Under the pieces are notes generated by a model. It was not told the DNA's origin and made no database searches. It saw only the letters and a list, made by a program, of their open reading frames with translations. The translations under genes and the position numbers were made by a program. Shown piece after piece: positions 1 through 12,660 of a DNA stretch of 64,000 bases. Source of the stretch: Gammaproteobacteria bacterium (GTDB lineage: Bacteria; Pseudomonadota; Gammaproteobacteria; GCA-001735895); assembly GCA_050298595.1 (NCBI GenBank), contig JBNKUM010000070.1, positions 1 through 64,000 on the forward strand. Reading direction: 5' to 3'. Within the stretch, counting starts at the first letter, position 1. Each line of letters opens with the position of its first letter.

Positions 1-1
1 T

Positions 2-100
2 CTCGGGCACAGTCACTTACAAACAACCATGATTTATACCCATGTAAAACCTGATCATAAGAACGTGAGTAGTCCATTAGATAGACTTAAAAGTGATTAA
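2..100 (+). CDS. 3' end of a tyrosine recombinase/integrase (IntI-like or XerD-like), truncated by the window edge
   Basis: Frame +2 reads LGHSHLQTTMIYTHVKPDHKNVSSPLDRLKSD*. This is box II (LGH...TTxIYTHV, with catalytic Tyr) plus the SPLD tail seen in integron integrases and related recombinases. Not in the ORF track. Confidence 0.85.
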   Translation, partial: LGHSHLQTTMIYTHVKPDHKNVSSPLDRLKSD

Positions 101-135
101 TATGACGTAAATCTGATCAGCGGCCAAGGAAGGCC

Positions 136-193
136 AATGACAGCTTTTGGCACGAACTTGCCAAATGAATACAAAGAATTAATGTCCGCTTTT
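136..193 (+). repeat. Motif pair copy 1: AATGACAGCTTTTGGCACGAACTTGCC-N18-AATGTCCGCTTTT
   Basis: Two AATG(A/T)C(A/C)GCTT cores start at 136 and 181, 45 bp apart. The same geometry recurs at 3428/3473. Confidence 0.55.
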
Positions 194-201
194 GATAGTC
201 G

Positions 202-331
202 TATGTCGGATAATCCTGGCAGGGATGTCAGAGAGTACGAGACCATGGACGGTCGAAGGTAGGACAATGCAGGACGCTATTGTCGAGAGCAACGCAGGAC
301 GCAGTTGCCGAGCAAAGCGCCATCCGACATA
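202..331 (+). repeat. REP-like palindrome containing four GGA-loop hairpins (CsrA/RsmA-binding-like array)
   Basis: Outer inverted repeat TATGTCGGAT (202-211)/ATCCGACATA (322-331). Inner hairpins at 216-231, 241-254, 263-284 and 289-308, each with an AGGGA/ATGGA/AGGA loop. Confidence 0.65.
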
Positions 332-491
332 AACAACACAAGCACTCTGGCAAACTCAAAGGCAAGCCAATGTTGGAAGGCATCGTTCCATATACAACCT
401 ACAATTCCGGGTTACGGGTTTGAACAGCTGACTTCTCTGTTGTGGGTCTGCAATAATTGTTGCATTATTGGGAAAAAGCTAACAATAACAC

Positions 492-2144
492 ATGGATCTC
501 TTCTCCCCTCTCCTGTCATGGATTACCGAACACGCCAACACGTTTGGCTTGCCTGGGCTGATTTTTCTCGCTTATGTCCATTACCGCTACAAGGTGAACT
601 ACCGTATCTTTTTCGGCAACCCTGGGGACAGCGAGCAACTGAGGGCCGAGCATAAGAATGATCTGGACAACCGAATCGACCTGATCAATTCCCGGTCATT
701 CGAAAACCGTTACCTGCACGAGTTAACCTTGGGCCTGGACAAGGTGGCGCAAAAGTGGACCAGGGATGAGGGATCACTGCTGAGTCCATCCAAAGGCTGG
801 ACGCGGCACTGGTTTGGCGTAAATCCGTTTACTCCCGGCAGTTATCAATTCTGTTTACGCCTGGCCCTGGTGTATCCGCTGGGCGCGTTCATTTTGTCAT
901 GGGGTATGGGAGGAAGCGGGGAATTTGCCACCTTGCCTGTGCTGGATGATCAGGCGAGCGGACTTGACAGGCTCTGGGCGAACGTAGGAATTGCTTGCAT
1001 TATCTTTTTTTCTTATCAACTCAGAGTGGCAAATACATGGGCTGCCATGATTATTTATTACGCTGTCGCTTTCGCTTTCGTTCTCCCTGTCACTGACGCT
1101 GCCACTGACGCTGCCACCCGCCTTTTCCTTGCCAATTTCGCTTTGTTTTTTTCTATCGTTTTCGTTGCCGCTGTCACTGCCTATAGCGCTGGCGCTTTAG
1201 CTGTCGCTTTAGCTGCAGTCTTTGCTTTCACTGTCTTAGTCGTTGTCAAAGGCGCTAGCGCTGTCTCTTACAATGCCGCTTTCGCTGCCACCTTCGCTAC
1301 CATTCTTGTTGTCTCTGTCATTGCCGCTGTCCTTTATGCCAAAAAAGAGAATCGTATACCGTATCGGGAGAGTATTTACTGGTGGGCGTTCACACTGTAT
1401 TTCCTGCTGTATTCCCTCGCTAGCATATATCTGGTGCTACGTTATGGAAGCGCTGAGCACGTGAAGCCCATCCTGCTTCCGGTTTTTCTCTGCATACTTC
1501 CATTGCTGAATGCGCCTGTCGACTGGTTGTCACTCGGCTTTACCCGGGGCCTGCTGTACGCCATAAAAAGCGGCGACCACAGCCCGCCTAAAGCCATTGC
1601 CTGGGCGTTTGCGGACCTGGTTTTGGCGATTAGTTTCCTTCTGCTAATTGCCAGCCTCACCACTTCGGTAATGGCGATAATTAATACACTGGCTTTCCAC
1701 ATCACCGGAGCCAACCTACTGGACCTGAACGGCCTCATCGCCGGACTACGCCACACCCCCCTGGCAACTGATTACTGGTGGATACATTTCATGATGCTTT
1801 CCACCCTTGTTCCCACTCTGGTTCATTTTATGATCGCGGGCATGGCCCTGGTGCTTGTACTGCCCGAATCGCTACGCCGCAAGATGGTCGCAAGCCTGAG
1901 GCCCGAAGATTCAATTAGCGTTCTGTATGTTCCGGAAACGGTCAGAGAAGAAACCAAGCCCCGAGGTGATTATCGCCGATATGCCTTCTATTACATCACC
2001 TTCGGGCCACTGCTTGCTTTTGTTGGGCCAGCTTTTCTGCTGTGGGTTCTCTACCAGCTGGTCACGGCATGGCATGGAGCCCTCGGCTTTCTGCTATTGG
2101 ACTGGGTGGAATGGCTGGTACAGTCGATCAGCTCTGCTTTTTAG
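492..2144 (+). CDS. Uncharacterised polytopic membrane protein with a low-complexity Ala/Val/Phe tract
   Basis: 550-aa ORF with many hydrophobic helices. No recognisable catalytic motif. Confidence 0.8.
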   Translation: MDLFSPLLSWITEHANTFGLPGLIFLAYVHYRYKVNYRIFFGNPGDSEQLRAEHKNDLDNRIDLINSRSFENRYLHELTLGLDKVAQKWTRDEGSLLSPSKGWTRHWFGVNPFTPGSYQFCLRLALVYPLGAFILSWGMGGSGEFATLPVLDDQASGLDRLWANVGIACIIFFSYQLRVANTWAAMIIYYAVAFAFVLPVTDAATDAATRLFLANFALFFSIVFVAAVTAYSAGALAVALAAVFAFTVLVVVKGASAVSYNAAFAATFATILVVSVIAAVLYAKKENRIPYRESIYWWAFTLYFLLYSLASIYLVLRYGSAEHVKPILLPVFLCILPLLNAPVDWLSLGFTRGLLYAIKSGDHSPPKAIAWAFADLVLAISFLLLIASLTTSVMAIINTLAFHITGANLLDLNGLIAGLRHTPLATDYWWIHFMMLSTLVPTLVHFMIAGMALVLVLPESLRRKMVASLRPEDSISVLYVPETVREETKPRGDYRRYAFYYITFGPLLAFVGPAFLLWVLYQLVTAWHGALGFLLLDWVEWLVQSISSAF

Positions 2145-2390
2145 GATCAAATTAACTGGTGACATGTACACATTAGACACTGATCAGTGGCTATAGCTGC
2201 TATTGATCCAAACAAGTTAGCAAAATTACAAAACGGAACGGGGAGATAGGAAATAGTGAGGATGGGTCTTTAACGGCTATTTTCGGTGATAAAGAGCCAC
2301 TGTCAGAAAAGATATAGTCGAAATAAAGTCCATTGGATGTGCTTTTTCGCGTTTTTATAAGCAATAGACTAAAACCTGGAAAGGAAAATT

Positions 2391-3203
2391 ATGAATACTT
2401 ATGCTGTCAAGACTCAAGAGAATAAAAGCCAATCGGTAGCTCATTCTGTTTCTCAAAAGCAGAGTGGTAATCGGGCTACTTTTCAATTTGTTGATAATCG
2501 ACCTGAGAGTATTACTCAGCGAAAACAGCAAAAGATGATAGGCAAAAATCCACAGGTGATGTCGCCAAATCATACTAAAAGCAAAGAATCATATGTTAGA
2601 AAAATGCAGAAAGGAGTGGTTCAACGTGAATATGATTTAGCTGACAACTCAGAGGAAAACAAGGAGAAAATGAGGCTTTATGACATCGTATTACACGAAG
2701 TACACGATATACTTAGTGCAAAGAACGTTGCCTACAAGCTGCAAGGAAGTATGGCGCAAGCCATGCAGGGTGGAGGTGTGCTAGAGTTGCCCGGTGATAT
2801 AGATGTTTTAGTGCCGAGCCCCATAATTGCTGCGAATTTTCTTGCGGCATCTGGAAAGTTTACAATTACTGTTAGATCAGGAATCGTTTCGAAAGTAAAT
2901 CACAAAGACACAGGTATTCAAGTGGATTTGGCTGAAACAGATGACTTTGGAATGGCAGCTGCGGGAACTGAAGAAATAGAAGGTATTGCTGTTCTTAATC
3001 TATATGAAACGCTAACAGGATTGCTATTAAGACCAGAGAAAAGGTTGAAAGACCATGTAGCTTTTATCTCATTAATCGTTCCAAGAGGCGATGAGTTAAG
3101 TGACGAGGAAAAGGAAGCATTAGTTGGCAGAACACCTTTTAAAAGCTGGTCAGAACTGTATGGTTTTGCACTAGAAAACTATACTAAGATGGTAATGGAA
3201 TAG
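2391..3203 (+). CDS. Putative eCIS-effector-like protein: DUF4157-protein-type N-terminal leader plus nucleotidyltransferase-like domain
   Basis: RBS AAGGA upstream. N-terminus MNTYAVKTQENKSQSVA...TFQFVDNRPE...QRK, a VVQR junction, then GS(x12)GDIDVLV, a Pol-beta-fold NTase motif. Confidence 0.65.
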   Translation: MNTYAVKTQENKSQSVAHSVSQKQSGNRATFQFVDNRPESITQRKQQKMIGKNPQVMSPNHTKSKESYVRKMQKGVVQREYDLADNSEENKEKMRLYDIVLHEVHDILSAKNVAYKLQGSMAQAMQGGGVLELPGDIDVLVPSPIIAANFLAASGKFTITVRSGIVSKVNHKDTGIQVDLAETDDFGMAAAGTEEIEGIAVLNLYETLTGLLLRPEKRLKDHVAFISLIVPRGDELSDEEKEALVGRTPFKSWSELYGFALENYTKMVME

Positions 3204-3259
3204 CCTTGAAAAAAGACTTAATACATTTATGAATGCAGAGTTTGGTTTAAGATAAAAGC

Positions 3260-3312
3260 CCATAACAAAACCTAAAAGCCATTGAAAACGTCTTTTAGCC
3301 CAACTGTTATTA
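3260..3312 (+). repeat. attC-like imperfect inverted repeat downstream of ORF 2391-3203
   Basis: CCATAAC-AAAAC-CTAAAAG-(13 nt)-CTTTTAG-CCCAACT-GTTATTA: AAC/GTT outer boxes and an inner 7-bp pair. Confidence 0.5.
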
Positions 3313-3427
3313 CGTCGGTTCCCTCGTTGGGTTACGTGTAGAAGTCAGGCTCGATGATTTTCCGGTATCATGATTAGAGCTTCAGGGTTTTGATTGCGAT
3401 AGACCTACTTTTGAAATTTTGTTTCCA

Positions 3428-3483
3428 AATAACCGCAACGGGCCGAAAGCGCCCATAGCACCTGGAATAACGAATGTCAGCTT
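3428..3483 (+). repeat. Motif pair copy 2: AATAACCGCAACGGGCCGAAAGCGCCC-N18-AATGTCAGCTT
   Basis: Same 27+18 nt geometry as 136-193. The second core matches AATGTCCGCTT at 10/11 positions. Confidence 0.5.
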
Positions 3484-3552
3484 AACTGAAATTTGTGAGA
3501 TAAAATCAAGCACTGATCCACACTAGTTAGATCAAATACAACGCATTACAGG

Positions 3553-3726
3553 TCAATCCTGGCACTCAGGACAAGTCACCCCGGTTTTGCATGGATACCC
3601 ATCGATACTACATTTCACTTCTTCCGTTACAGCTATAAACGACACGATTTCTCGTGCGATCTGTTTTCTAAGCTGTTCACCATCACGATAGGCAATGGCT
3701 ATATTTGTAAGCTTGTTAATGAGATC
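3553..3726 (-). pseudogene. Start-less ORF remnant with a C-terminal 4-Cys motif, possibly phage-like
   Basis: 57 open codons DLINKLTNIAIAYRDGEQLRKQIAREI...CSIDGYPCKTGVTCPECQD*, preceded by an in-frame TGA. Confidence 0.35.
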
Positions 3727-3737
3727 TCAATATTCGT

Positions 3738-3785
3738 AGAATCAAAGGGGCAGAATTGTTGATTCTTTCAGCCCCCCTTGATTCT
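3738..3785. repeat. Short inverted-repeat element AGAATCAA(A)GGGG...CCCCTTGATTCT
   Basis: Arms at 3738-3750 and 3774-3785. TTGATTC occurs three times in 3759-3791. Confidence 0.5.
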
Positions 3786-3886
3786 TGATTCATAACAGAA
3801 GCTTTGATTTGAGAATATCAAAACCGCTAGTTTTGCTTAGATATAAACTTTATCAACCAGCGGCCTTATCGTCACTGGTTATAAAA

Positions 3887-5473
3887 TCAATGCAAACAAC
3901 ACTTCTTAAACTTCTTGCCGCTACCGCAGGGGCAAGGATCATTTCTTCCAACCTTGGGAGTTTCTCGTTCAAAGGGTTGCTGTACATCCCAGTTGAAATC
4001 ACTGTCTGGTTCGCCGAATAGCTCATCCTCATAATCTATCTCGTCTTCAGCTTCCCATGCTTCAGATTCTGACCAGCTTTGATGACGCGCTTTTATTGCC
4101 GATATTTGATAAAAACCCCAGGGTTCTCTTTCGTTTTCCCATTCTGGTTGATCGATGTCCAGACGGTATGCAGCTTCGATATCGTGTTTGTCGAATATCC
4201 TGTCAAATGCATCCTGTAACGATGCCATATGGCCGAGCAGCTCACGATAGCGGTCACGGGGAAAATTGAGCAGGCAACCTGCCGCCGGAAACCTGAATTC
4301 CCAGTCTTCATTCTCATCGGAAACAAACCCTGCGAGCCAGTCGAGGCTCGCTTCAAGGGTCTGCCCGCCCTGTTGTTTCGCGTCGGCGATAACGGCTTCA
4401 ACCAGATTTATACGGGTGTACCAGTCAATTTGTGTATCTTCACATAGTTCGCGCAGCTTGTGGATCACCGTTGCGGGTTTGTTGCGGGTCAGCGCAGGCC
4501 AGTAGCCGGCGAACCAGTCCTGGATTTCGCCGTCTTCACTGAGTCTCAAATAGTCGATAAATGGCAGTAACATCATACCTGCCTTTTCACTCGGGATTAG
4601 CCCCAGGATCATAATGGCGTGTAAGCGCATCCACCAGCGGCCTAAAGTTTCAAATGGCTCTCCTTCATTTGGGTCTGCAATAGGTGCCAGCGCCTCTACC
4701 ATTTTTTCTCCACGACTGGCGCATTCGTCGATGACGTTACGTGGTACGCGGTCTTCGTCGTCGATCATGAGTTCAATCAGTTCGGCTTCGCTTAGAGTTT
4801 TTAAATAGTCATTGTTATATTCGGGTAGTTCATCGGTCTCTGGATCGAACCCCAGGCCTGATGTTGGGGTCTCGTTTTCGCGTTGCGAAAGCCAGTAGGC
4901 ATGAATCTCTTTTGCGCAGGGTGTGATCTGTTGTTGCAGTGCATGAATCTCATCCATGTCGAGGCTGTCGAGCAGATCAAACATTTGTTCACTACCAAAA
5001 ATCACTATTGGCATAAGCATTTGGATCATGGGTTCGCTTTCGATATTCCAGTCTTCCAGACATAAGGACATGCCTCGAATATAGCCAAAACACCATTCAT
5101 CGACGACAAGATATTCTTCATCATCTACGATATTTTTTTCAAATACAGGTTGGTATTCTTCCGGCTCTTCCATCAACGTAAAGACAATGCTATTCATGAT
5201 GTCGATCATGATGCTGAATATTCTTTCGAATTGTTCTTCGTTTTCCCACTCGGGTTCAAAATCTCCCCATACTAATGGCAGCCATTGCATAGGTGAAATC
5301 ATTTTCGGGCCACTGACTATCGCGGTGAAAAAACCATCTAGCTCGGAGATACATTGTATCCCTTCATCCTTGTCGTCTGTAGATTCATCGTCGATAATTC
5401 GATTGGCTAATATTTCTTCAAGCCAGTCTAAATCAGCATCGGTGAGCATGCTCTCTGTCGAGGAGTTATTCAT
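3887..5473 (-). CDS. YecA/UPF0149-like domain + DUF1186-like region + C-terminal SEC-C zinc motif protein
   Basis: N-terminal [27 protein letters not shown] and WCFGYIRG (YecA-like). C-terminal [20 protein letters not shown]. Confidence 0.8.
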
Positions 5474-5534
5474 AATATTTATCTACTCAATGAATTGATT
5501 GCCAGGCCCTGTTAGCACTTTATGAAAAAAGAAT

Positions 5535-6248
5535 TTATATTTTCGATTTTATCGAATCAGATCTAAGCTTCTGCTGAAGGTATGTATACACATGACTGTC
5601 TTGCCTGATTATAAGCTCGTAACACAGTTGACAAATAGACAGAACAACAAAATAGGAGATAAAAACATCACTGAAGAAATGCCCACCTGCCGTAATTCTG
5701 GCAAGCCCTACACTAAAGCCATATAGTGTTGCTAAAGCGACCCACCACCCACGTTTTCTGGTCGTCAGAAAAGCCAGCGCCAAAACAAAAAATGCGCCTG
5801 CCGCATGCCCCGAAGAGAATGAACAGTTTTTTTCACACTGATCACTGATTACAAAGGCTGGTGTAAATATTTTATCCCCACCAAACTCTGTGACGGTGAG
5901 TGGACGCGCTCGACCAAAATGGTCTTTGAATAAGCTATTTACAATAAGGCCTGGACCGACAATCAATGCGATCAATAAATACAGGGTTATCCTGCCATTG
6001 ACCTTAAGCAGGTTGCGTCGAAAAATTTTATTAAAAAGATACAGACCCAGCACTCCGAATACAACCGTTTTAAGTAATATCGGCACCGAGTTGTAGAGTA
6101 GTGTCACCCACCATGAATCCTTGAGATAAAACCCCTGTTCGGGAGTGTAAAACAAAGAGGTGATCTGTATATCAATTTGCGGATAAAGAATCAGCAGGAT
6201 AGATGACAAAATATTGAACAGCAGTGCTATCTTGAATTTGGTTGACAT
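5535..6248 (-). CDS. PAP2-family phosphatase, probable lipid A phosphatase (LpxE/LpxF-like)
   Basis: Motifs KDHFGRARP, SFSSGH, RITAGGHFFSD. Membrane protein adjacent to lpxL/waaA. Start taken at MSTKF (6248); the ORF extends to 6272. Confidence 0.75.
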   Translation of the reverse strand: MSTKFKIALLFNILSSILLILYPQIDIQITSLFYTPEQGFYLKDSWWVTLLYNSVPILLKTVVFGVLGLYLFNKIFRRNLLKVNGRITLYLLIALIVGPGLIVNSLFKDHFGRARPLTVTEFGGDKIFTPAFVISDQCEKNCSFSSGHAAGAFFVLALAFLTTRKRGWWVALATLYGFSVGLARITAGGHFFSDVFISYFVVLSICQLCYELIIRQDSHVYTYLQQKLRSDSIKSKI

Positions 6249-6289
6249 CGGTGGATTGTAATATAGATACAAAGATCAAGACATAAGAT

Positions 6290-7216
6290 TTAATAGACTG
6301 CTGCTTCACCCGGAGGTCGGGTTTTAAAACGCCGGTGTACCCATACATACTGCTCAGGATATTGCGCGACCTGAGATTCAATCACCTGATTTATCTGTAG
6401 TGCATCCAGGCTATCATCGCCGGATGGAAAATTTTGCAGCGGCGGTAGAAATCTCACCAGGTAACGACCATTGGTTTGATAAAAAAAGAATAAGGGTATG
6501 ACCACCGCTCCGGTAGATTTCGCAAGCCGCGAGGTCGAGGTCAGGGTTGCTGTCTGTACCCCGAAAAATGGCGCGAATACACTGCGACGACGACCGAAAT
6601 CCTGATCGGGCGCATACCATAAACCCTCACCCTGCTTCAGGAATCGAATCATATTGCGCATATCCATGCGTTCCAGCACTCGTTGATAGGCTTGTGTACG
6701 TGAGCGATATACCATGACATCCATCAGCGAGTTATTCATTTTCTGGTAGGTGATATTAAAACGATATTTCTTTGCCAGCAGGCGCCCACCCAGTTCCATC
6801 GCAAAGGTATGCCCGCCCATCATGATCACGCCACGTCCGCTGGACAGGGCCTGCTCGAAGTATTCCAGACCTTCAAAATCGACCGGTATTTTTTGCAGCC
6901 GTTTTTTTGATCCCCACCATACCAGAGGCATTTCCATAAGCATCATCCCCATACTCGAAAAAACTCGCTTTACCAGATAGGTCTGTTGAGTCTGATCCAG
7001 TTCAGGAAATGCCAGCTTGATATTGGTGAGCGATATTTTTTTTCGCTGAGGTAACAGGTAATAAAACACCTGACCAAGCCCCCTGCCCAATACGTGGCTG
7101 AGCTGCAGCGGCAGATAGGCCACCAGATGAGACAGACCAATAAATACCCACATCAGCCAGTACTTTGGTGCCAGGTAATGGTATAGCTCGAGTTTTTCAG
7201 GTGCGCGGCTTTTCAT
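6290..7216 (-). CDS. lpxL: Lipid A lauroyl acyltransferase (LpxL/LpxP family)
   Basis: HTFAME, WYAPDQDFG and PEQYVWVHRRFKTRP motifs. Confidence 0.9.
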   Translation of the reverse strand: MKSRAPEKLELYHYLAPKYWLMWVFIGLSHLVAYLPLQLSHVLGRGLGQVFYYLLPQRKKISLTNIKLAFPELDQTQQTYLVKRVFSSMGMMLMEMPLVWWGSKKRLQKIPVDFEGLEYFEQALSSGRGVIMMGGHTFAMELGGRLLAKKYRFNITYQKMNNSLMDVMVYRSRTQAYQRVLERMDMRNMIRFLKQGEGLWYAPDQDFGRRRSVFAPFFGVQTATLTSTSRLAKSTGAVVIPLFFFYQTNGRYLVRFLPPLQNFPSGDDSLDALQINQVIESQVAQYPEQYVWVHRRFKTRPPGEAAVY

Positions 7217-8444
7217 CGATCTCGCTTTGTATAATCTGCATCAGCTTTGTGGTTGCCCCCTGACCTTTGCGCAAGACACTCTGTCCCTGTTTTATCAGGG
7301 TCTGGATCTGTTGAGAATTATGCATCAGGTTTTTCAATGCTGTAGCCAGGTTTTCTGCTGTGACCAGAACAACTGCCTGTTGTTGCTCAAGCTCGGCATA
7401 GGCTTCAGAAAAATTAAATACATGGGGGCCGGTCAGCACTACGGCATCATACAGTAATGCTTCATAGGGATTGTGTCCGCCGGTTTGAACCAGGCTGCCA
7501 CCAATAAATGCCAGATCTGCCAATTGGTAGAACTTTAGAAGATCACCCATGGTGTCGCCCAGTAGTACATCGCTATCATGACAGGTTTCAGAATCACTGA
7601 AACGCTGATAACTAAAGCCCTGTTTTTCTATTAATCTGGCTACTTCTTCAAACCGTTCAGGATGCCTTGGCACCAGGATCAGGGTGCATTCATCCCCTGC
7701 CTCCAGCAATTTGCGTTGCGCGGCCAGCACCAGTTCATCCTCACCACGGTGGGTACTCGCGGCCACCCACAATGGACGGTTAAACCTTTGCTTTAATGTT
7801 TCAGCAGCCTGAATAGTCGCAGGATCTGGATGCACATCCAGCTTGATGTTACCCATAACATCTAAACGCTTTACTCCCAGTTGCTGAAAATACTGACTAT
7901 CCTGACTGGACCTTGCAGCCACATGGATGGCAGCAAATACCGGCTTAAGCATATTTTGAAACCGTGCGTAACCTGCTGCACTTTTCGCGGAGAGGCGTGC
8001 ATTGGCAATCACTACTGGTACAGCCTGTTGCTGGCAGCCCATAATCAGGCTCGGCCAGATTTCGGTTTCCATGATAATGCCCACTCTCGGTTGCCAGTTA
8101 CGCAAAAAGCGCTTTACCGCAAAAGGAACATCCAGCGGCAGGTAGCTATGTAGCGCGAAGGGATATTTACGACGGACACGTTCCGAGCCAGTAGGTGTGG
8201 TTGATGTTATCAATATAGGAATATCTGGATATTGAAGCTGCAGAGTATGAATCAACGGAGCTGCGGCTTCGGCCTCTCCCACAGATACCGCATGTACCCA
8301 GATCACGGATTTTTGTGGGCTTTGACAAAAACCCAGGCGCTCTTTCCAGCGTTTCCGATAGGCTGCATTGTGTCGGCTACGCCATAGCAGGCGTATAAAC
8401 ACAAACGGTAGTAGCAGGTGCATCATCAGCTTATACAGTGCCAT
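7197..8444 (-). CDS. waaA: Kdo transferase
   Basis: IWVHAVSVGE, METEIWP, AASTHRGED, LVPRHPERF, GGSL..GGHNPYE. Confidence 0.95.
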   Translation of the reverse strand: MALYKLMMHLLLPFVFIRLLWRSRHNAAYRKRWKERLGFCQSPQKSVIWVHAVSVGEAEAAAPLIHTLQLQYPDIPILITSTTPTGSERVRRKYPFALHSYLPLDVPFAVKRFLRNWQPRVGIIMETEIWPSLIMGCQQQAVPVVIANARLSAKSAAGYARFQNMLKPVFAAIHVAARSSQDSQYFQQLGVKRLDVMGNIKLDVHPDPATIQAAETLKQRFNRPLWVAASTHRGEDELVLAAQRKLLEAGDECTLILVPRHPERFEEVARLIEKQGFSYQRFSDSETCHDSDVLLGDTMGDLLKFYQLADLAFIGGSLVQTGGHNPYEALLYDAVVLTGPHVFNFSEAYAELEQQQAVVLVTAENLATALKNLMHNSQQIQTLIKQGQSVLRKGQGATTKLMQIIQSEIDEKPRT

Positions 8445-9534
8445 TAGCCGTTCCCTTTTCGATTAAGCCCTGATATACCGCCAGATTACCTTCAACCATA
8501 GCCTCGATAGAGTATTCCCGTTCTACCAGTTGACGACCCGCCATTCCGAATTGCTGTCGGGTATGCGGTTCATCGATCAGTCGTTTGAGTGCCTGCACCA
8601 GTCCGGCCAGATCACCCGGTTCAATCAGCAGACCATTTTCTTCATCGTACACGATCTCGGGCATACCGCCAGCACGGCTGGCAATTACCGGTACACTACA
8701 GGCAGCCGCCTGGATCAGCGAGATGCCCAATCCTTCCATCAACGCTGGATGTACCAGCACATCGATACAGCCCAGCCAGTTTGGCAGGTCGTGACGGAAA
8801 CCGGTGAATTGCACTCGGTCCTGCAATCCTCGTTCCTGGGCTTCCTGCTCCAGCGAGTCCTTTAACGGCCCCTGCCCAAAGCAGATCAGGCGTAATTGCG
8901 GATAGCTCGATACCAGTTGTTGCATGGCCTGCAATACCAGGCTATGCCCCTTGCGAGGTATCAGTTGTGCCACCATGCCAAGGACGACATGATCTGTCTG
9001 GGTATCAAACTCTTCATTGAATTTTTTGCGATCGCATCGATTTTGCCAGCCATTGGCATCAATGGCACTACGTACGGTGATGACCTTTTGTGCCGGGACA
9101 CCCTCCCCCAGCAAGACCTGACGAATACCTTCGGATATGCAAATGATCCGATCATAGAGGCGATATTTTAGCCCGACCCACCAGAGCGCTTCTGGGTTAT
9201 CCACACGTCGGGACAACACTGTTGGAATACCGGCAATGGATCCTGCAAGTCCTCCCCAGATATCCGCGCCCCGTCGGCTGTGACTATGAATGATGTCAGG
9301 CCGATGTTGTTTGATCAGCTTGAGCAATTTAAACATCAGGCGAAAATCCACATCGCCACGCAGCGAAAGCTGATGCACATCGGCCATGTCTTCTACCTCT
9401 GTAGCAATTGCACTGCCCTGCTGACAAACCAGGATATTTTCTATGTCACGACGATGCAGCCCTTCGATAATATAGGCAACCTGACGCGCGCCACCATATA
9501 GATGACGTCCGGTTTCTATGTGCAGTACCTTCAT
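8431..9534 (-). CDS. GT4 glycosyltransferase
   Basis: YGGARQV, RKGH and EGLGISLIQA...PVIASRAGGMPE. Confidence 0.9.
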   Translation of the reverse strand: MKVLHIETGRHLYGGARQVAYIIEGLHRRDIENILVCQQGSAIATEVEDMADVHQLSLRGDVDFRLMFKLLKLIKQHRPDIIHSHSRRGADIWGGLAGSIAGIPTVLSRRVDNPEALWWVGLKYRLYDRIICISEGIRQVLLGEGVPAQKVITVRSAIDANGWQNRCDRKKFNEEFDTQTDHVVLGMVAQLIPRKGHSLVLQAMQQLVSSYPQLRLICFGQGPLKDSLEQEAQERGLQDRVQFTGFRHDLPNWLGCIDVLVHPALMEGLGISLIQAAACSVPVIASRAGGMPEIVYDEENGLLIEPGDLAGLVQALKRLIDEPHTRQQFGMAGRQLVEREYSIEAMVEGNLAVYQGLIEKGTANGTV

Positions 9535-9535
9535 G

Positions 9536-10570
9536 TCAAACTGATCCGGGGCTGATTTGCTTTACTGTAGCCATCACCTCGGGCACCGTGATTAATTGCA
9601 TACAGCTGAATTCATTATTGCACTGAGGTCTACGCCGACAGGGTGAACACCAGAGTTTATGGTACAGGACTTTACCGTTGGGATTGCTGGGGTCGAGGTA
9701 GGGACTAGTAGAGCCGAAAATTGAAATTGTGGGTCGTTGCAAAGCATGTCCCATATGGGTTAAACCGGTATCCACGCCAATCACGATACTGGCCCGGGAG
9801 ATTATCGCGGCTGCCGTTAACAATGAGGTTACACCAACCAGGTTACGCAGCTCTGGTAGATTATCTGCAATCTTTTCGGCGGCTGCTTTATCAGCCGGAC
9901 CACCCAACATCACAACGTCATAACCTTTGCTCTGTAAATGCGATACCAGCTCACGCCAGCTATGCTCGAACCAGTGTTTCTGGGGACGTGTGGTGAATGG
10001 CAATATAACAGCGATATCTTTTTTCAACTCATTGGAAACGATAATCTCTTCCGCCTGCTGGTGACTTTTATCATCAATTGACAGGTGCAGGTCAAGCTGT
10101 TCGCTAGACAGACCCATCTGCTCGGCCAGATAGCGGTATTCAGAACTGATCAAACTTGCTTCACCACCCTTGGCAAACACCTGTGTCATCAGATACTGGC
10201 TGCCTTCGCGTGAACCCAGACCTATACGCTGTCTGGCATTGCTCTGCCAGGCCCAGATACCACTCTTTAACAAGCCCTGGAGATCTATCGCCAGATCTGC
10301 ATCCAGCGCCCTTAAGTCTGCTCTAAGCCTGCGCCATGCCCTGAACAGGCGTATGAATTGCCCCTGCCTGATGTAGCCACGCCATTCCTGTTTGGGCCAG
10401 GTGATCACCTGATCGATAGCGGGCTCGGCATCCAGTAATGGCTTAATGGCTGGCTCACATAACCAGGTAATCTTTGCATCAGGGTATTTACGCCGTAACG
10501 CCTGCACAAAAGGGCTGGTAAAAACAAAATCCCCAATAGCGCTTAGGCGTATGATCAAGATTGACTTCAA
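9536..10570 (-). CDS. GT9 heptosyltransferase (WaaC/WaaF family)
   Basis: ILIIRLSAIGD, DLQGLLKS, GVDTGLTH. TTG start. Confidence 0.9.
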   Translation of the reverse strand: MKSILIIRLSAIGDFVFTSPFVQALRRKYPDAKITWLCEPAIKPLLDAEPAIDQVITWPKQEWRGYIRQGQFIRLFRAWRRLRADLRALDADLAIDLQGLLKSGIWAWQSNARQRIGLGSREGSQYLMTQVFAKGGEASLISSEYRYLAEQMGLSSEQLDLHLSIDDKSHQQAEEIIVSNELKKDIAVILPFTTRPQKHWFEHSWRELVSHLQSKGYDVVMLGGPADKAAAEKIADNLPELRNLVGVTSLLTAAAIISRASIVIGVDTGLTHMGHALQRPTISIFGSTSPYLDPSNPNGKVLYHKLWCSPCRRRPQCNNEFSCMQLITVPEVMATVKQISPGSV

Positions 10571-10848
10571 TGATTTGCTCTTTTACTTGAAGGTTAAAAG
10601 GGAATTATACGGGAAAATCAACACAGGTCTGCCAGGTTGTCGTAAATCCATAAAGCGGTCTATTCGATACTTCAATATGCAAGGAAAATAGAGAAAACAT
10701 AACCAGAGTTCTCCTTGCTTTTTGAATAGTATCAGGCATTTATTAAGTATCACGCAGTTTAGAGAAGAGGAAGTTTGGAGGTCGGTATATTATCTGTCAT
10801 ACTTCGTTTCCCGTCTCGCAATTGTACACCAATCACCTAATTTGACCA

Positions 10849-12660
10849 ATGTGTGGTATCGCAGGAATATACGCTAAAAGCGCTGGAGATTACTCTCCTG
10901 ATGGCGCAAAAATGGCCCAACAGCTGGAGCATCGTGGCCCGGATAACACTACCGTATATCAACTGCAAAACGGGGTTCTGGTACATACACGTCTGTCTAT
11001 CATTGATCTGGAGCATGGTAATCAGCCACTATCTAATCATGATGAATCCATTCAGCTGGTCGCTAATGGCGAGATTTATAACTTTATCGAGCTAAGACAG
11101 GAGCTTGAAAAACATAAAGCTCAATTCAAAACACATTCAGACTGTGAAACCATACTGCATGCTTACGCTGAGCATACACAGGATTTTGTCCAGCGCCTGA
11201 ATGGCATGTTTGCTTTTGCCCTGCATGATTCAAATCGCCAGACCCTGACACTGGCACGTGATCGGCTCGGTATTAAACCCCTGTTTTATACCGTGCAAAA
11301 TGACCGGGTATTATTTGCTTCTGAGATCAAGGCAATACTGACTGCGCTGGGTTCTATACCCGAGTTGATTGATGACTCCTTGCAGCAGTTTTTACAGAAT
11401 CAGTTTATCTCTGGCAGAGAAACCATGTATCAGGGCATCTATAAGGTGCTGCCAGGTGAAATCATTGAATTTAATGCTGCGCTGGAGATGAGTCGCAGGC
11501 AATACTGGGATCCCATCGCCAGCGTCAATCAGTTCGAGTTTGGAGATGATATCTATGCTGAGTTTAATACCTCGTTCAATACTGTAATCGAGCAACATAT
11601 TCGCTCCGATGTTCCCTTTGGCCTGTTTCTTTCAGGTGGTGCCGATTCGGCTATTTTGTTAGCCATGTTGAGCCAGTTTCATGCACAGCCTATCAGCACC
11701 TTCTCGGTGGGGTTCAAGGGCCGGGATAAACAGAATGAAACCAATGATGCCAGTTACATTGCTGATAAATTCAATAGCAACCACCATACCTTACTGCTGG
11801 ACAGTGACGATATCTTCAATCGAATACCATTGATGACCTGGTCTGCAGATGACCTGATGCGTGATTATGCCAGCCTGCCTACGCTGGCTTTAGCGGAGTA
11901 CGCCGCACAGGATTTGAAGGTTGTTTTTTCGGGTGAAGGGGGTGATGAAGCCTTTGCTGGTTACAGACGCTACCACCCGCGTGGTTTTGAGAACCAGATT
12001 AAGAGCCTGATCTACCCCGGAACTCAGGGGTTTAGAACACGAGGGCAGTTGGGCTCGCTGGCACCATTTTTCAGGGATAGCTCAATACCCAAAAAGTCAG
12101 ACTTTCGTAACCATTTTCAAACTGCATGGAAGTCCTGCCCGAAACACTGGAGCTTTATGCAGAAAGCCCAGTACACCGATATCAAAACAGCGCTAAGCGA
12201 TAACCTGCTGGTCAAATCCGACCGCATGCTGATGGCCTTTGGCCTGGAAGGAAGAGTTCCTTTTGTCGATCATCGTGTCATTGAATTTGGCCTGGCCTTA
12301 CCCGATCAGTTTAAATATCAGGATAAAAAAGGGAAATTCTTCCTTAAGAAATGGGCTGAGCAATATATTCCGCCTGACTATCTGCACAGAAAAAAACGCG
12401 GATTTTACGTGCCTATCGATAGCTGGCTAACCCAGGACTCACTACAACAACATCTTAGACAGAAACTGTTGAGTAATAAGGCGATACAAAACTGGTTCGA
12501 CACCGATAAAATCAATCAGCTTTTTAAGAATGATCGTCATATCAAAAAATACAGCAGGCATATTATGTGTCTTATGCAATTTGCCATATGGCACAATATG
12601 TCGGTCAACGCCTTCAGGCAAAGACCTTCGAGCAATGAAAGCATCTTTGACTGGCTCTAA
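10849..12660 (+). CDS. asnB: Asparagine synthase-like glutamine amidotransferase (polysaccharide-associated)
   Basis: MCGIAG, HRGPD, RLSIID, NGEIYN, LSGGADS, SGEGGDE, EGRVPF. Confidence 0.92.
   Translation: MCGIAGIYAKSAGDYSPDGAKMAQQLEHRGPDNTTVYQLQNGVLVHTRLSIIDLEHGNQPLSNHDESIQLVANGEIYNFIELRQELEKHKAQFKTHSDCETILHAYAEHTQDFVQRLNGMFAFALHDSNRQTLTLARDRLGIKPLFYTVQNDRVLFASEIKAILTALGSIPELIDDSLQQFLQNQFISGRETMYQGIYKVLPGEIIEFNAALEMSRRQYWDPIASVNQFEFGDDIYAEFNTSFNTVIEQHIRSDVPFGLFLSGGADSAILLAMLSQFHAQPISTFSVGFKGRDKQNETNDASYIADKFNSNHHTLLLDSDDIFNRIPLMTWSADDLMRDYASLPTLALAEYAAQDLKVVFSGEGGDEAFAGYRRYHPRGFENQIKSLIYPGTQGFRTRGQLGSLAPFFRDSSIPKKSDFRNHFQTAWKSCPKHWSFMQKAQYTDIKTALSDNLLVKSDRMLMAFGLEGRVPFVDHRVIEFGLALPDQFKYQDKKGKFFLKKWAEQYIPPDYLHRKKRGFYVPIDSWLTQDSLQQHLRQKLLSNKAIQNWFDTDKINQLFKNDRHIKKYSRHIMCLMQFAIWHNMSVNAFRQRPSSNESIFDWL

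Follow-up and report, generated by a model that had tools for sequence, protein, structure and literature searches.

The stretch of DNA analysed here, referred to as the window, comprises the first 64,000 nt of contig C70, one of the 119 contigs of a 5.49-Mb gammaproteobacterial genome (G000). It opens with the 3' end of an integron integrase gene, intI, behind which lie a short hairpin, a copy of a dispersed intergenic repeat (the module), two genes and a second module copy. A preliminary description of this DNA had proposed the recombinase and the genes behind it as a candidate noncanonical gene-capture system that may use the two motif copies as its sites. Our analysis showed that the integron is a canonical chromosomal one with its cassettes on the other side of intI, and that the centre of the module is a specific landing site for an insertion sequence (IS) of the IS1182 family. 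The features at the locus are as follows:

2..100, + strand: 3' end of intI, the last 32 codons and the stop codon (98-100), truncated by the contig start.
122..135, + strand: short hairpin GGCC-AAGGAA-GGCC just before the first box.
136..199, + strand: module copy A, with box 1 at 136-147, the centre TGGCAC at 148-153 and box 2 at 181-192.
197..420, no strand assigned: a second, unrelated dispersed repeat family of approximately 225 nt, a long imperfect palindrome (80% identity to a copy on C56 over 236 nt, plus partial copies).
492..2144, + strand: open reading frame 1 (ORF1), 550 aa, hydrophobic and Ala-rich, without a family match; probably a strain-specific accessory gene.
2391..3203, + strand: ORF2, 270 aa, of low guanine-plus-cytosine (GC) content, with a shared N-terminal leader and otherwise unique.
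3298..3338, no strand assigned: the hairpin previously described as attC-like, an inverted repeat with a gene fragment, not an attC.
3406..3483, + strand: module copy 2, with a degenerate box 1 at 3428-3439, the centre GGGCCGA and box 2 at 3473-3484.
3484..3557, + strand: a flank family that follows the module in approximately seven copies in the genome.
3887..5473, - strand: a yecA-like gene (UPF0149 and SEC-C) and the first of the core genes; synteny with relatives is restored from approximately 3777.

Positions 2-100 translate to LGHSHLQTTMIYTHVKPDHKNVSSPLDRLKSD followed by a stop codon. Of the NCBIfam models, the one that these 32 residues matched best was TIGR02249, which describes integron integrases (29.7 bits, E 3.9e-7), and XerC scored 19.6 bits; the fragment alone lies far below the whole-protein cutoff of TIGR02249, which is 265 bits. 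Full-length relatives scored 352-396 bits on TIGR02249 in one continuous stretch, and the XerC/D models matched them as two stretches. Judged by these comparisons the recombinase is of the IntI type, the truncated copy in the window being assigned by its tail and by its relatives, and the premise of the preliminary description that it is not a housekeeping XerC/D holds. An IS91-type transposase beside intI, for which the preliminary description had advised a check, was not obvious in the ORF lists of four relatives, which were read through without a profile search.

Contig C26 opens with the same 141 nt as C70, and the similarity extends, with three mismatches, to position 153. A paralogue on C99, the tail of which is 94% identical to the intI of the window over 33 aligned residues, matched TIGR02249 at profile positions 35-236 and 243-315 with 222 and 100 bits, which bears on both the IntI-specific segment and the whole-protein score. 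This third, diverged copy (C99:1-1032, L005) contains two in-frame stops and is probably a pseudogene; the hairpin and the module are still found behind it. The intI genes of the relatives G010 and G012 also contain stops (three TGA codons and one TGA codon, respectively). Contig depth points to approximately three intI copies.

Runs of small ORFs were located upstream of intI, on the opposite strand, in all four relatives with enough sequence (L009, L010, L013 and L014), and the array of L013 contains six attC copies at a spacing of 357-1022 nt. The 46-nt attC found in L009 has seven copies in the genome studied here, distributed over C102 (one), C110 (two), C35 (three) and C111 (one). Moreover, the attI side of L009 is identical to C110:1-87, beyond which C110 carries co-oriented small ORFs (113-4805), the last attC, a module and ATP-binding cassette (ABC) transporter genes. 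An attI and an attC-bounded array were thus found at the 5' end of intI, both in relatives and on contigs of this genome. In the genus relative G010, cysZ is directly beside yecA and the integron was not found between them; in our genome, the genes that come after cysZ (C62) are small ORFs of the opposite strand. The array, intI and positions 100-3776 of the window therefore lie between these two genes, which adjoin each other in G010. On the strength of the identity to L009, rather than of assembly, C110 or C62 would be physically linked to the intI copy of the window.

The integron is therefore a canonical chromosomal one, its attI and cassettes lying upstream of intI, divergently oriented and on other contigs. 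Since C110 joins the attI side, the genes at 492-3203 are on the noncassette side of intI, and positions 100-3500 lie outside the cassette array. The layout with downstream, co-oriented cassettes that had been proposed does not survive these findings, nor does the region 136-3483 behave as an attC-bounded array: it is on the 3' side of intI, and the attC profile of this genome has no match there or anywhere else on C70. In so-called inverted integrons of the Treponema type, intI is co-oriented with the cassettes, which resembles the proposed layout; that model is inapplicable here, where the cassettes are placed upstream in divergent orientation and no attC accompanies the genes behind intI. 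The locus shares with canonical chromosomal integrons a TIGR02249 recombinase and attC-bounded small ORFs placed upstream and divergently, in relatives and on its own contigs. It differs in that the window contains the noncassette side only, and in that, in this clade, intI is followed by a conserved hairpin and box, and the last attC by an inverted box.

The two-box motif occurs at 136-190 and 3428-3482, and the box starts are exactly 45 nt apart in both copies. A pattern written from the two copies matched only them, and nothing in 100 shuffles, which is a circular result; independent support came from a profile built from other copies, which matched both sites (E 7e-10 for copy A and 4e-10 for copy 2), as did a covariance model. 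The earlier observation that the motif pair recurs with identical geometry was thus confirmed. The module is approximately 65-90 nt long; a 12-nt box (AATGNCNGCTWT) occurs in it twice as a direct repeat, on either side of a centre that reads TGGCAC or GGGTCGA. The profile detected 43 copies in the genome at E<=0.05, and the covariance model 54. Among the 31 copies in which both boxes score at least 7/10, the spacing is exactly 45 nt in 20 and 41-47 nt in 27. All but one of the 43 copies (42/43) are intergenic; the downstream gene is convergent in 30 of 39 cases and the upstream gene is in the sense orientation in 18 of 35. The left and right flanks of the modules form families that are freely combined, and the joint is at the centre.

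These many intergenic copies with a fixed motif order make the module a dispersed intergenic repeat comparable to repetitive extragenic palindromic (REP) sequences and bacterial interspersed mosaic elements (BIMEs). The likeness includes the existence of subfamilies and the landing of an IS at one exact central point; IS1397 and ISKpn1 insert specifically into enterobacterial BIMEs. The module differs in that its boxes are direct repeats 45 nt apart, that no conserved palindrome or fold was found, and that its targeting element belongs to the IS1182 family. RNAalifold gave no consensus fold on either strand for 30 copies, and short inverted arms around the centre were seen by eye in some subfamilies. 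No protein recurs beside the modules (the largest cluster among 285 neighbouring ORFs has two members), no dense module arrays were found, and we know of no protein that binds the module.

Three other identities for the module were rejected. It bears no relation to the attC families found in L013 and in this genome, and no modules were found adjoining the other attC contigs (C35, C102 and C111). The 10-mer alone is not enriched (12 copies against approximately 10 expected), as an uptake sequence should be. A sigma-54 promoter reading of TGGCAC...TTGC leaves the GG-GC spacing one base short by our own count.

At the centre of a module on C64 lies a 1681-bp element (C64:12062-13742, L145), of which C67:44316-45996 is a second copy. 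The transposase of the C64 element scored 415.5 bits on the IS1182-family model NF033551 (cutoff 270), and the inverted repeats of the element are CAGGSTGTGTRAAAAC. Miniature derivatives of approximately 170 nt with the same inverted repeats occur in other modules, for example on C110. In 17 of the 66 copies of the IS inverted repeat, a box starts exactly 17 nt outside the end, whereas only 3.5% of random places have a box at any offset within 40 nt. The module centre is a specific landing site of the IS1182-family IS and its miniature derivatives, and the joining of flank families at the centre is due, at least in part, to insertion there. In the metagenome relative L128 (8984-9020), the same IS1182-type inverted repeat begins right after the second box behind intI, and the targeting by the IS therefore extends beyond this genus. 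The insertion of an IS1182-family element at one exact position of a dispersed repeat is in our view worth retaining.

With box 1 of the window starting at 136, the insertion point falls at 152/153. The identity among the near-identical intI copies C70, C26 and L009 ends at 141-153, with box 2 kept at the same distance, and in run X3 five contigs branch at 153. The tract behind these intI copies differs in gene content, as the preliminary description had expected of the sequence behind the motif. The contig C98 of G012 tracks the window to approximately position 300 and then switches inside the 197-420 repeat family. Taken together, the breakpoint at 153 and the switch in G012 indicate that the zone behind intI rearranges at several kinds of repeats. 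The proposal that the recombinase captures genes at the motif pairs is not supported by these breakpoints, since they fall at the IS1182 insertion point and not at a GTT crossover, and the motif is not private to the recombinase. No joint across 152-3444, as expected from excision or deletion between the modules, was present in the Logan contigs from four runs of one study, in which rare forms are dropped. Nor was the module itself recognizable as a MITE, a transposable element of the miniature inverted-repeat kind, or as a transposon: no terminal inverted repeats with a target duplication were found, and the IS1182-type element has inverted repeats of its own.

We therefore favour, as fairly probable, the reading that the locus borders an ordinary chromosomal integron on its outer side, in a repeat-rich, IS-targeted junction zone, and is not a new capture array. 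Direct support exists for the identity of the recombinase as IntI and for the canonical layout, for the module's number of copies, its geometry and its placement between genes, and for both the IS targeting and the breakpoints at its centre. In this arrangement intI is followed by the small hairpin and then by one copy of a dispersed intergenic module, and the stretch from intI to yecA is a plastic zone in which two strain-specific, probably horizontally acquired genes occur together with the other repeat family, a fragment of a gene and module copy 2. Rearrangement at the modules, mediated by the IS, by MITEs or by repeats, may be what varies its content, and not capture catalysed by IntI; the module that follows the last attC would represent the sequence that originally flanked attI on the cassette side. 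A capture array downstream of and co-oriented with intI would have represented a novel type of integron; what was found speaks for a normal one.

Several findings weigh against this reading. In this IntI clade a covarying hairpin precedes a box scoring at least 9/10 that sits 33-76 nt past the intI stop codon in 10 of 15 loci (approximately 59-77% IntI identity), and the box behind intI aligns in 19 of the 19 sequences of the alignment. At the opposite end, a box in the cassette orientation, inverted with respect to the intI-side box, was found at six of nine assessable array ends. At five of these (C110, L013, L128, L126 and L115) it directly follows the GTT of the last attC, with sequences such as GTTAATGTCC..., GTTGAATGTCC..., GTTGAAGTCC... 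and GTTAGTGAATGAC...; at L119 it lies approximately 60 nt beyond the last attC, and none was seen at C62, L014 or L123. In addition, each of the three near-identical intI copies (C70, C26 and L009) is followed at a distance of 1.5-3.3 kb by another module in the same orientation, and the genes between the modules differ. Within the genus, the five intI-bearing genomes have 11-54 modules and the nine others 0-5, a comparison of kindred genomes that is not an independent test. The box is more tightly associated with this IntI clade than would be expected of a random repeat. Furthermore, no IS is present today at the C70, C26 and L009 breakpoints, the IS-mediated origin of which we infer from their position.

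The connection between motif and recombinase that the preliminary description had drawn is accordingly borne out in part: the box does accompany this IntI clade, but it belongs to a dispersed 43-copy repeat that also occurs in genomes in which this intI was not found at E<=1e-40 (17 modules in G033, 14 in G049, seven in G036 and five in G004). Under the standard integron model, whatever follows the last attC is what flanked attI on its cassette side originally. Given that model and the box after the last attC, the empty platform would read module(-), attI, intI, hairpin, module(+), and the modules at both ends may be conserved boundary elements of this integron lineage. In this IntI clade the integron is bracketed by outward-facing modules. 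The hairpin is also conserved and covaries: it has five pairs across 13 loci, four of which show a pair-keeping change on both sides (stems GGCC/GGCC and AACC/GGTT). A hairpin and a box conserved at both outer ends across several genera might be of use in marking the limits of chromosomal integrons and in studying their movement; this feature and the IS targeting both bear on how chromosomal integrons change their genomic context. We found no mention of the box in a limited search of the integron literature, and an earlier publication remains possible. Behind intI and the module in L013 (6955-7750) we also noted approximately 800 nt without a convincing ORF, the translations of which resemble those of structured RNA.

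The explanation that survives best after the favoured one, and that we nevertheless regard as unlikely, is that the outward-facing modules are the ends of a nonautonomous transposon that carries the whole integron and is moved in trans by a putative transposase. It would account for the modules at six of nine assessable distal ends and, on the intI side, in 10 of 15 loci, for the identity of the two inner boxes of this genome (AATGACAGCTTT) and for the different contexts of the integron in C70, C26, L009 and G012, including its not being found between cysZ and yecA in G010. There are also precedents. Tn402-type class 1 integrons have IRi/IRt ends, and MITE-flanked integrons have been published: an Acinetobacter johnsonii integron is reported to have a 439-bp MITE at both ends (PMC3934969). 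Here too, inverted copies of a short noncoding repeat bracket the integron; however, neither a target duplication nor a transposase gene recurring beside the modules was identified, the copies cease to be identical midway through the module and not at an outer terminus, and one module abuts the attI crossover point. The inverted repeats of the IS1182 element are unrelated to the box. Genome-wide, our tally of the listed module pairs gave seven facing outward and three facing inward, which is not convincing as a general rule and does not clearly favour outward pairs.

It is quite improbable, on the sequence features available, that the hairpin and box form a 3'-end signal, a putative terminator or insulator, of the two divergent transcription units of the integron, or the start of a tiny ORF, with the same role elsewhere. 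The covariation of the hairpin would suit such a signal, as would the position of the module downstream of, and in the sense of, a transcription unit at both ends of the integron, and the intergenic (42/43) and convergent (30/39) setting of the dispersed copies. The stem at 122-135 is possibly that of the intI terminator; however, it lacks a following T run, the dispersed copies have no hairpin, and genome-wide only 18 of 35 upstream neighbours have the sense orientation. As to a tiny ORF, the box can be read as ATG-(A/T)CN-GCT-TTN and a purine-rich loop lies just upstream in this genus, but three of the intI-adjacent copies (G013, L119 and L113) have no start codon in the box.

There is also a broader proposal for this clade: the 12-nt box would form attI's outer half and have an inverted copy behind intI, the platform between outward-facing modules would be a discrete unit, and the approximately 50 modules would be landing or exchange sites by which the whole integron or adjacent gene segments move. 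We consider this quite improbable; if it were true, a second, module-based layer of gene shuffling would operate on top of the attC cassettes.

Least probable of all is that the modules are attI-like sites for IntI or another site-specific recombinase, with gene units inserted or exchanged behind intI and at the dispersed modules, as might be suggested by the box directly after the GTT at five array ends (on the standard model, the cassette-side half of an ancestral attI), by the divergence of identical intI flanks inside the module with box 2 at an unchanged distance, and by the second same-orientation module with different genes between in three of three contexts. This is countered by the position of the break, which is 17 nt from where the box starts and coincides with the IS1182 insertion point instead of a GTT, by the sequence of the box behind intI (CCAATG, not GTTAATG), by the varying orientation of the genes between the modules (C70 +,+; C26 -,-; L009 -), by the modules in G033, G049, G036 and G004, and by the lack of dense arrays.

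Returning to the flank of the ordinary integron that we favour, the two genes between the module copies are both on the + strand and differ in base composition, in agreement with the preliminary description: the GC content is approximately 0.51-0.55 for ORF1 and 0.37-0.42 for ORF2, in a genome of 0.45. Both are probably strain-specific, horizontally acquired genes. ORF1, from its sequence probably a membrane protein, had no match in Pfam, NCBIfam or PADLOC and was not found in any of the 13 genus relatives searched; in the Atlas it falls among unnamed Pseudomonadota clusters (0.93). Its interior (1057-1334) contains a periodic 6/12-nt repeat (GCTGTC/GCTTTC-like) encoding an Ala/Val/Phe-rich stretch. 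ORF2 had no match in Pfam, NCBIfam, PADLOC or the PDB, and its matches elsewhere are limited to residues 5-86. The N-terminus of ORF2 (2391-2560) is a leader of approximately 50 aa (..FQFVDNRPE..QRK..) common to otherwise unrelated proteins on C101 and C8 and in the relatives G001 and G033, and has the appearance of a shared N-terminal tag attached to diverse C-terminal domains. The C-terminal part contains a G..D.D motif that we presume to be nucleotidyltransferase-like, a weak lead, and in the Atlas PF10706 occurs in 17% of one cluster (score 0.75).

The hairpin after the second gene is a real inverted repeat, GCCCAAC ... GTTGGGT at approximately 3298-3336. At approximately 39 nt, with no inner pairing seen, no match to the attC profile and a gene fragment inside, it is not an attC. 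The fragment (3307-3338, minus strand) is a 32-nt piece that is 100% identical to C115:8746-8777 and 94% identical to two places on C21, and it corresponds to the 5' coding part of a repeated 128-aa ORF (C115:8704-9090; C21:35280 and 40436). The candidate assignment of this parent ORF as a Y1 transposase (IS200/REP-associated tyrosine transposase type) was rejected: the N-terminal motif resembles that of such transposases, but neither Pfam nor NCBIfam gave a match. Single-strand folds of 100-440 and 3204-3560 were not better than those of shuffled sequences (z -1.28 and +0.28, respectively), no Rfam family matched at E<=1 in window positions 1-6000, and no attachment site in a tRNA or transfer-messenger RNA (tmRNA) gene was found in positions 1-12000. 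Copies of the 197-420 repeat family were noted on C56, C100, C51, C94, C22, C85 and other contigs, and dozens occur in the relative G001.

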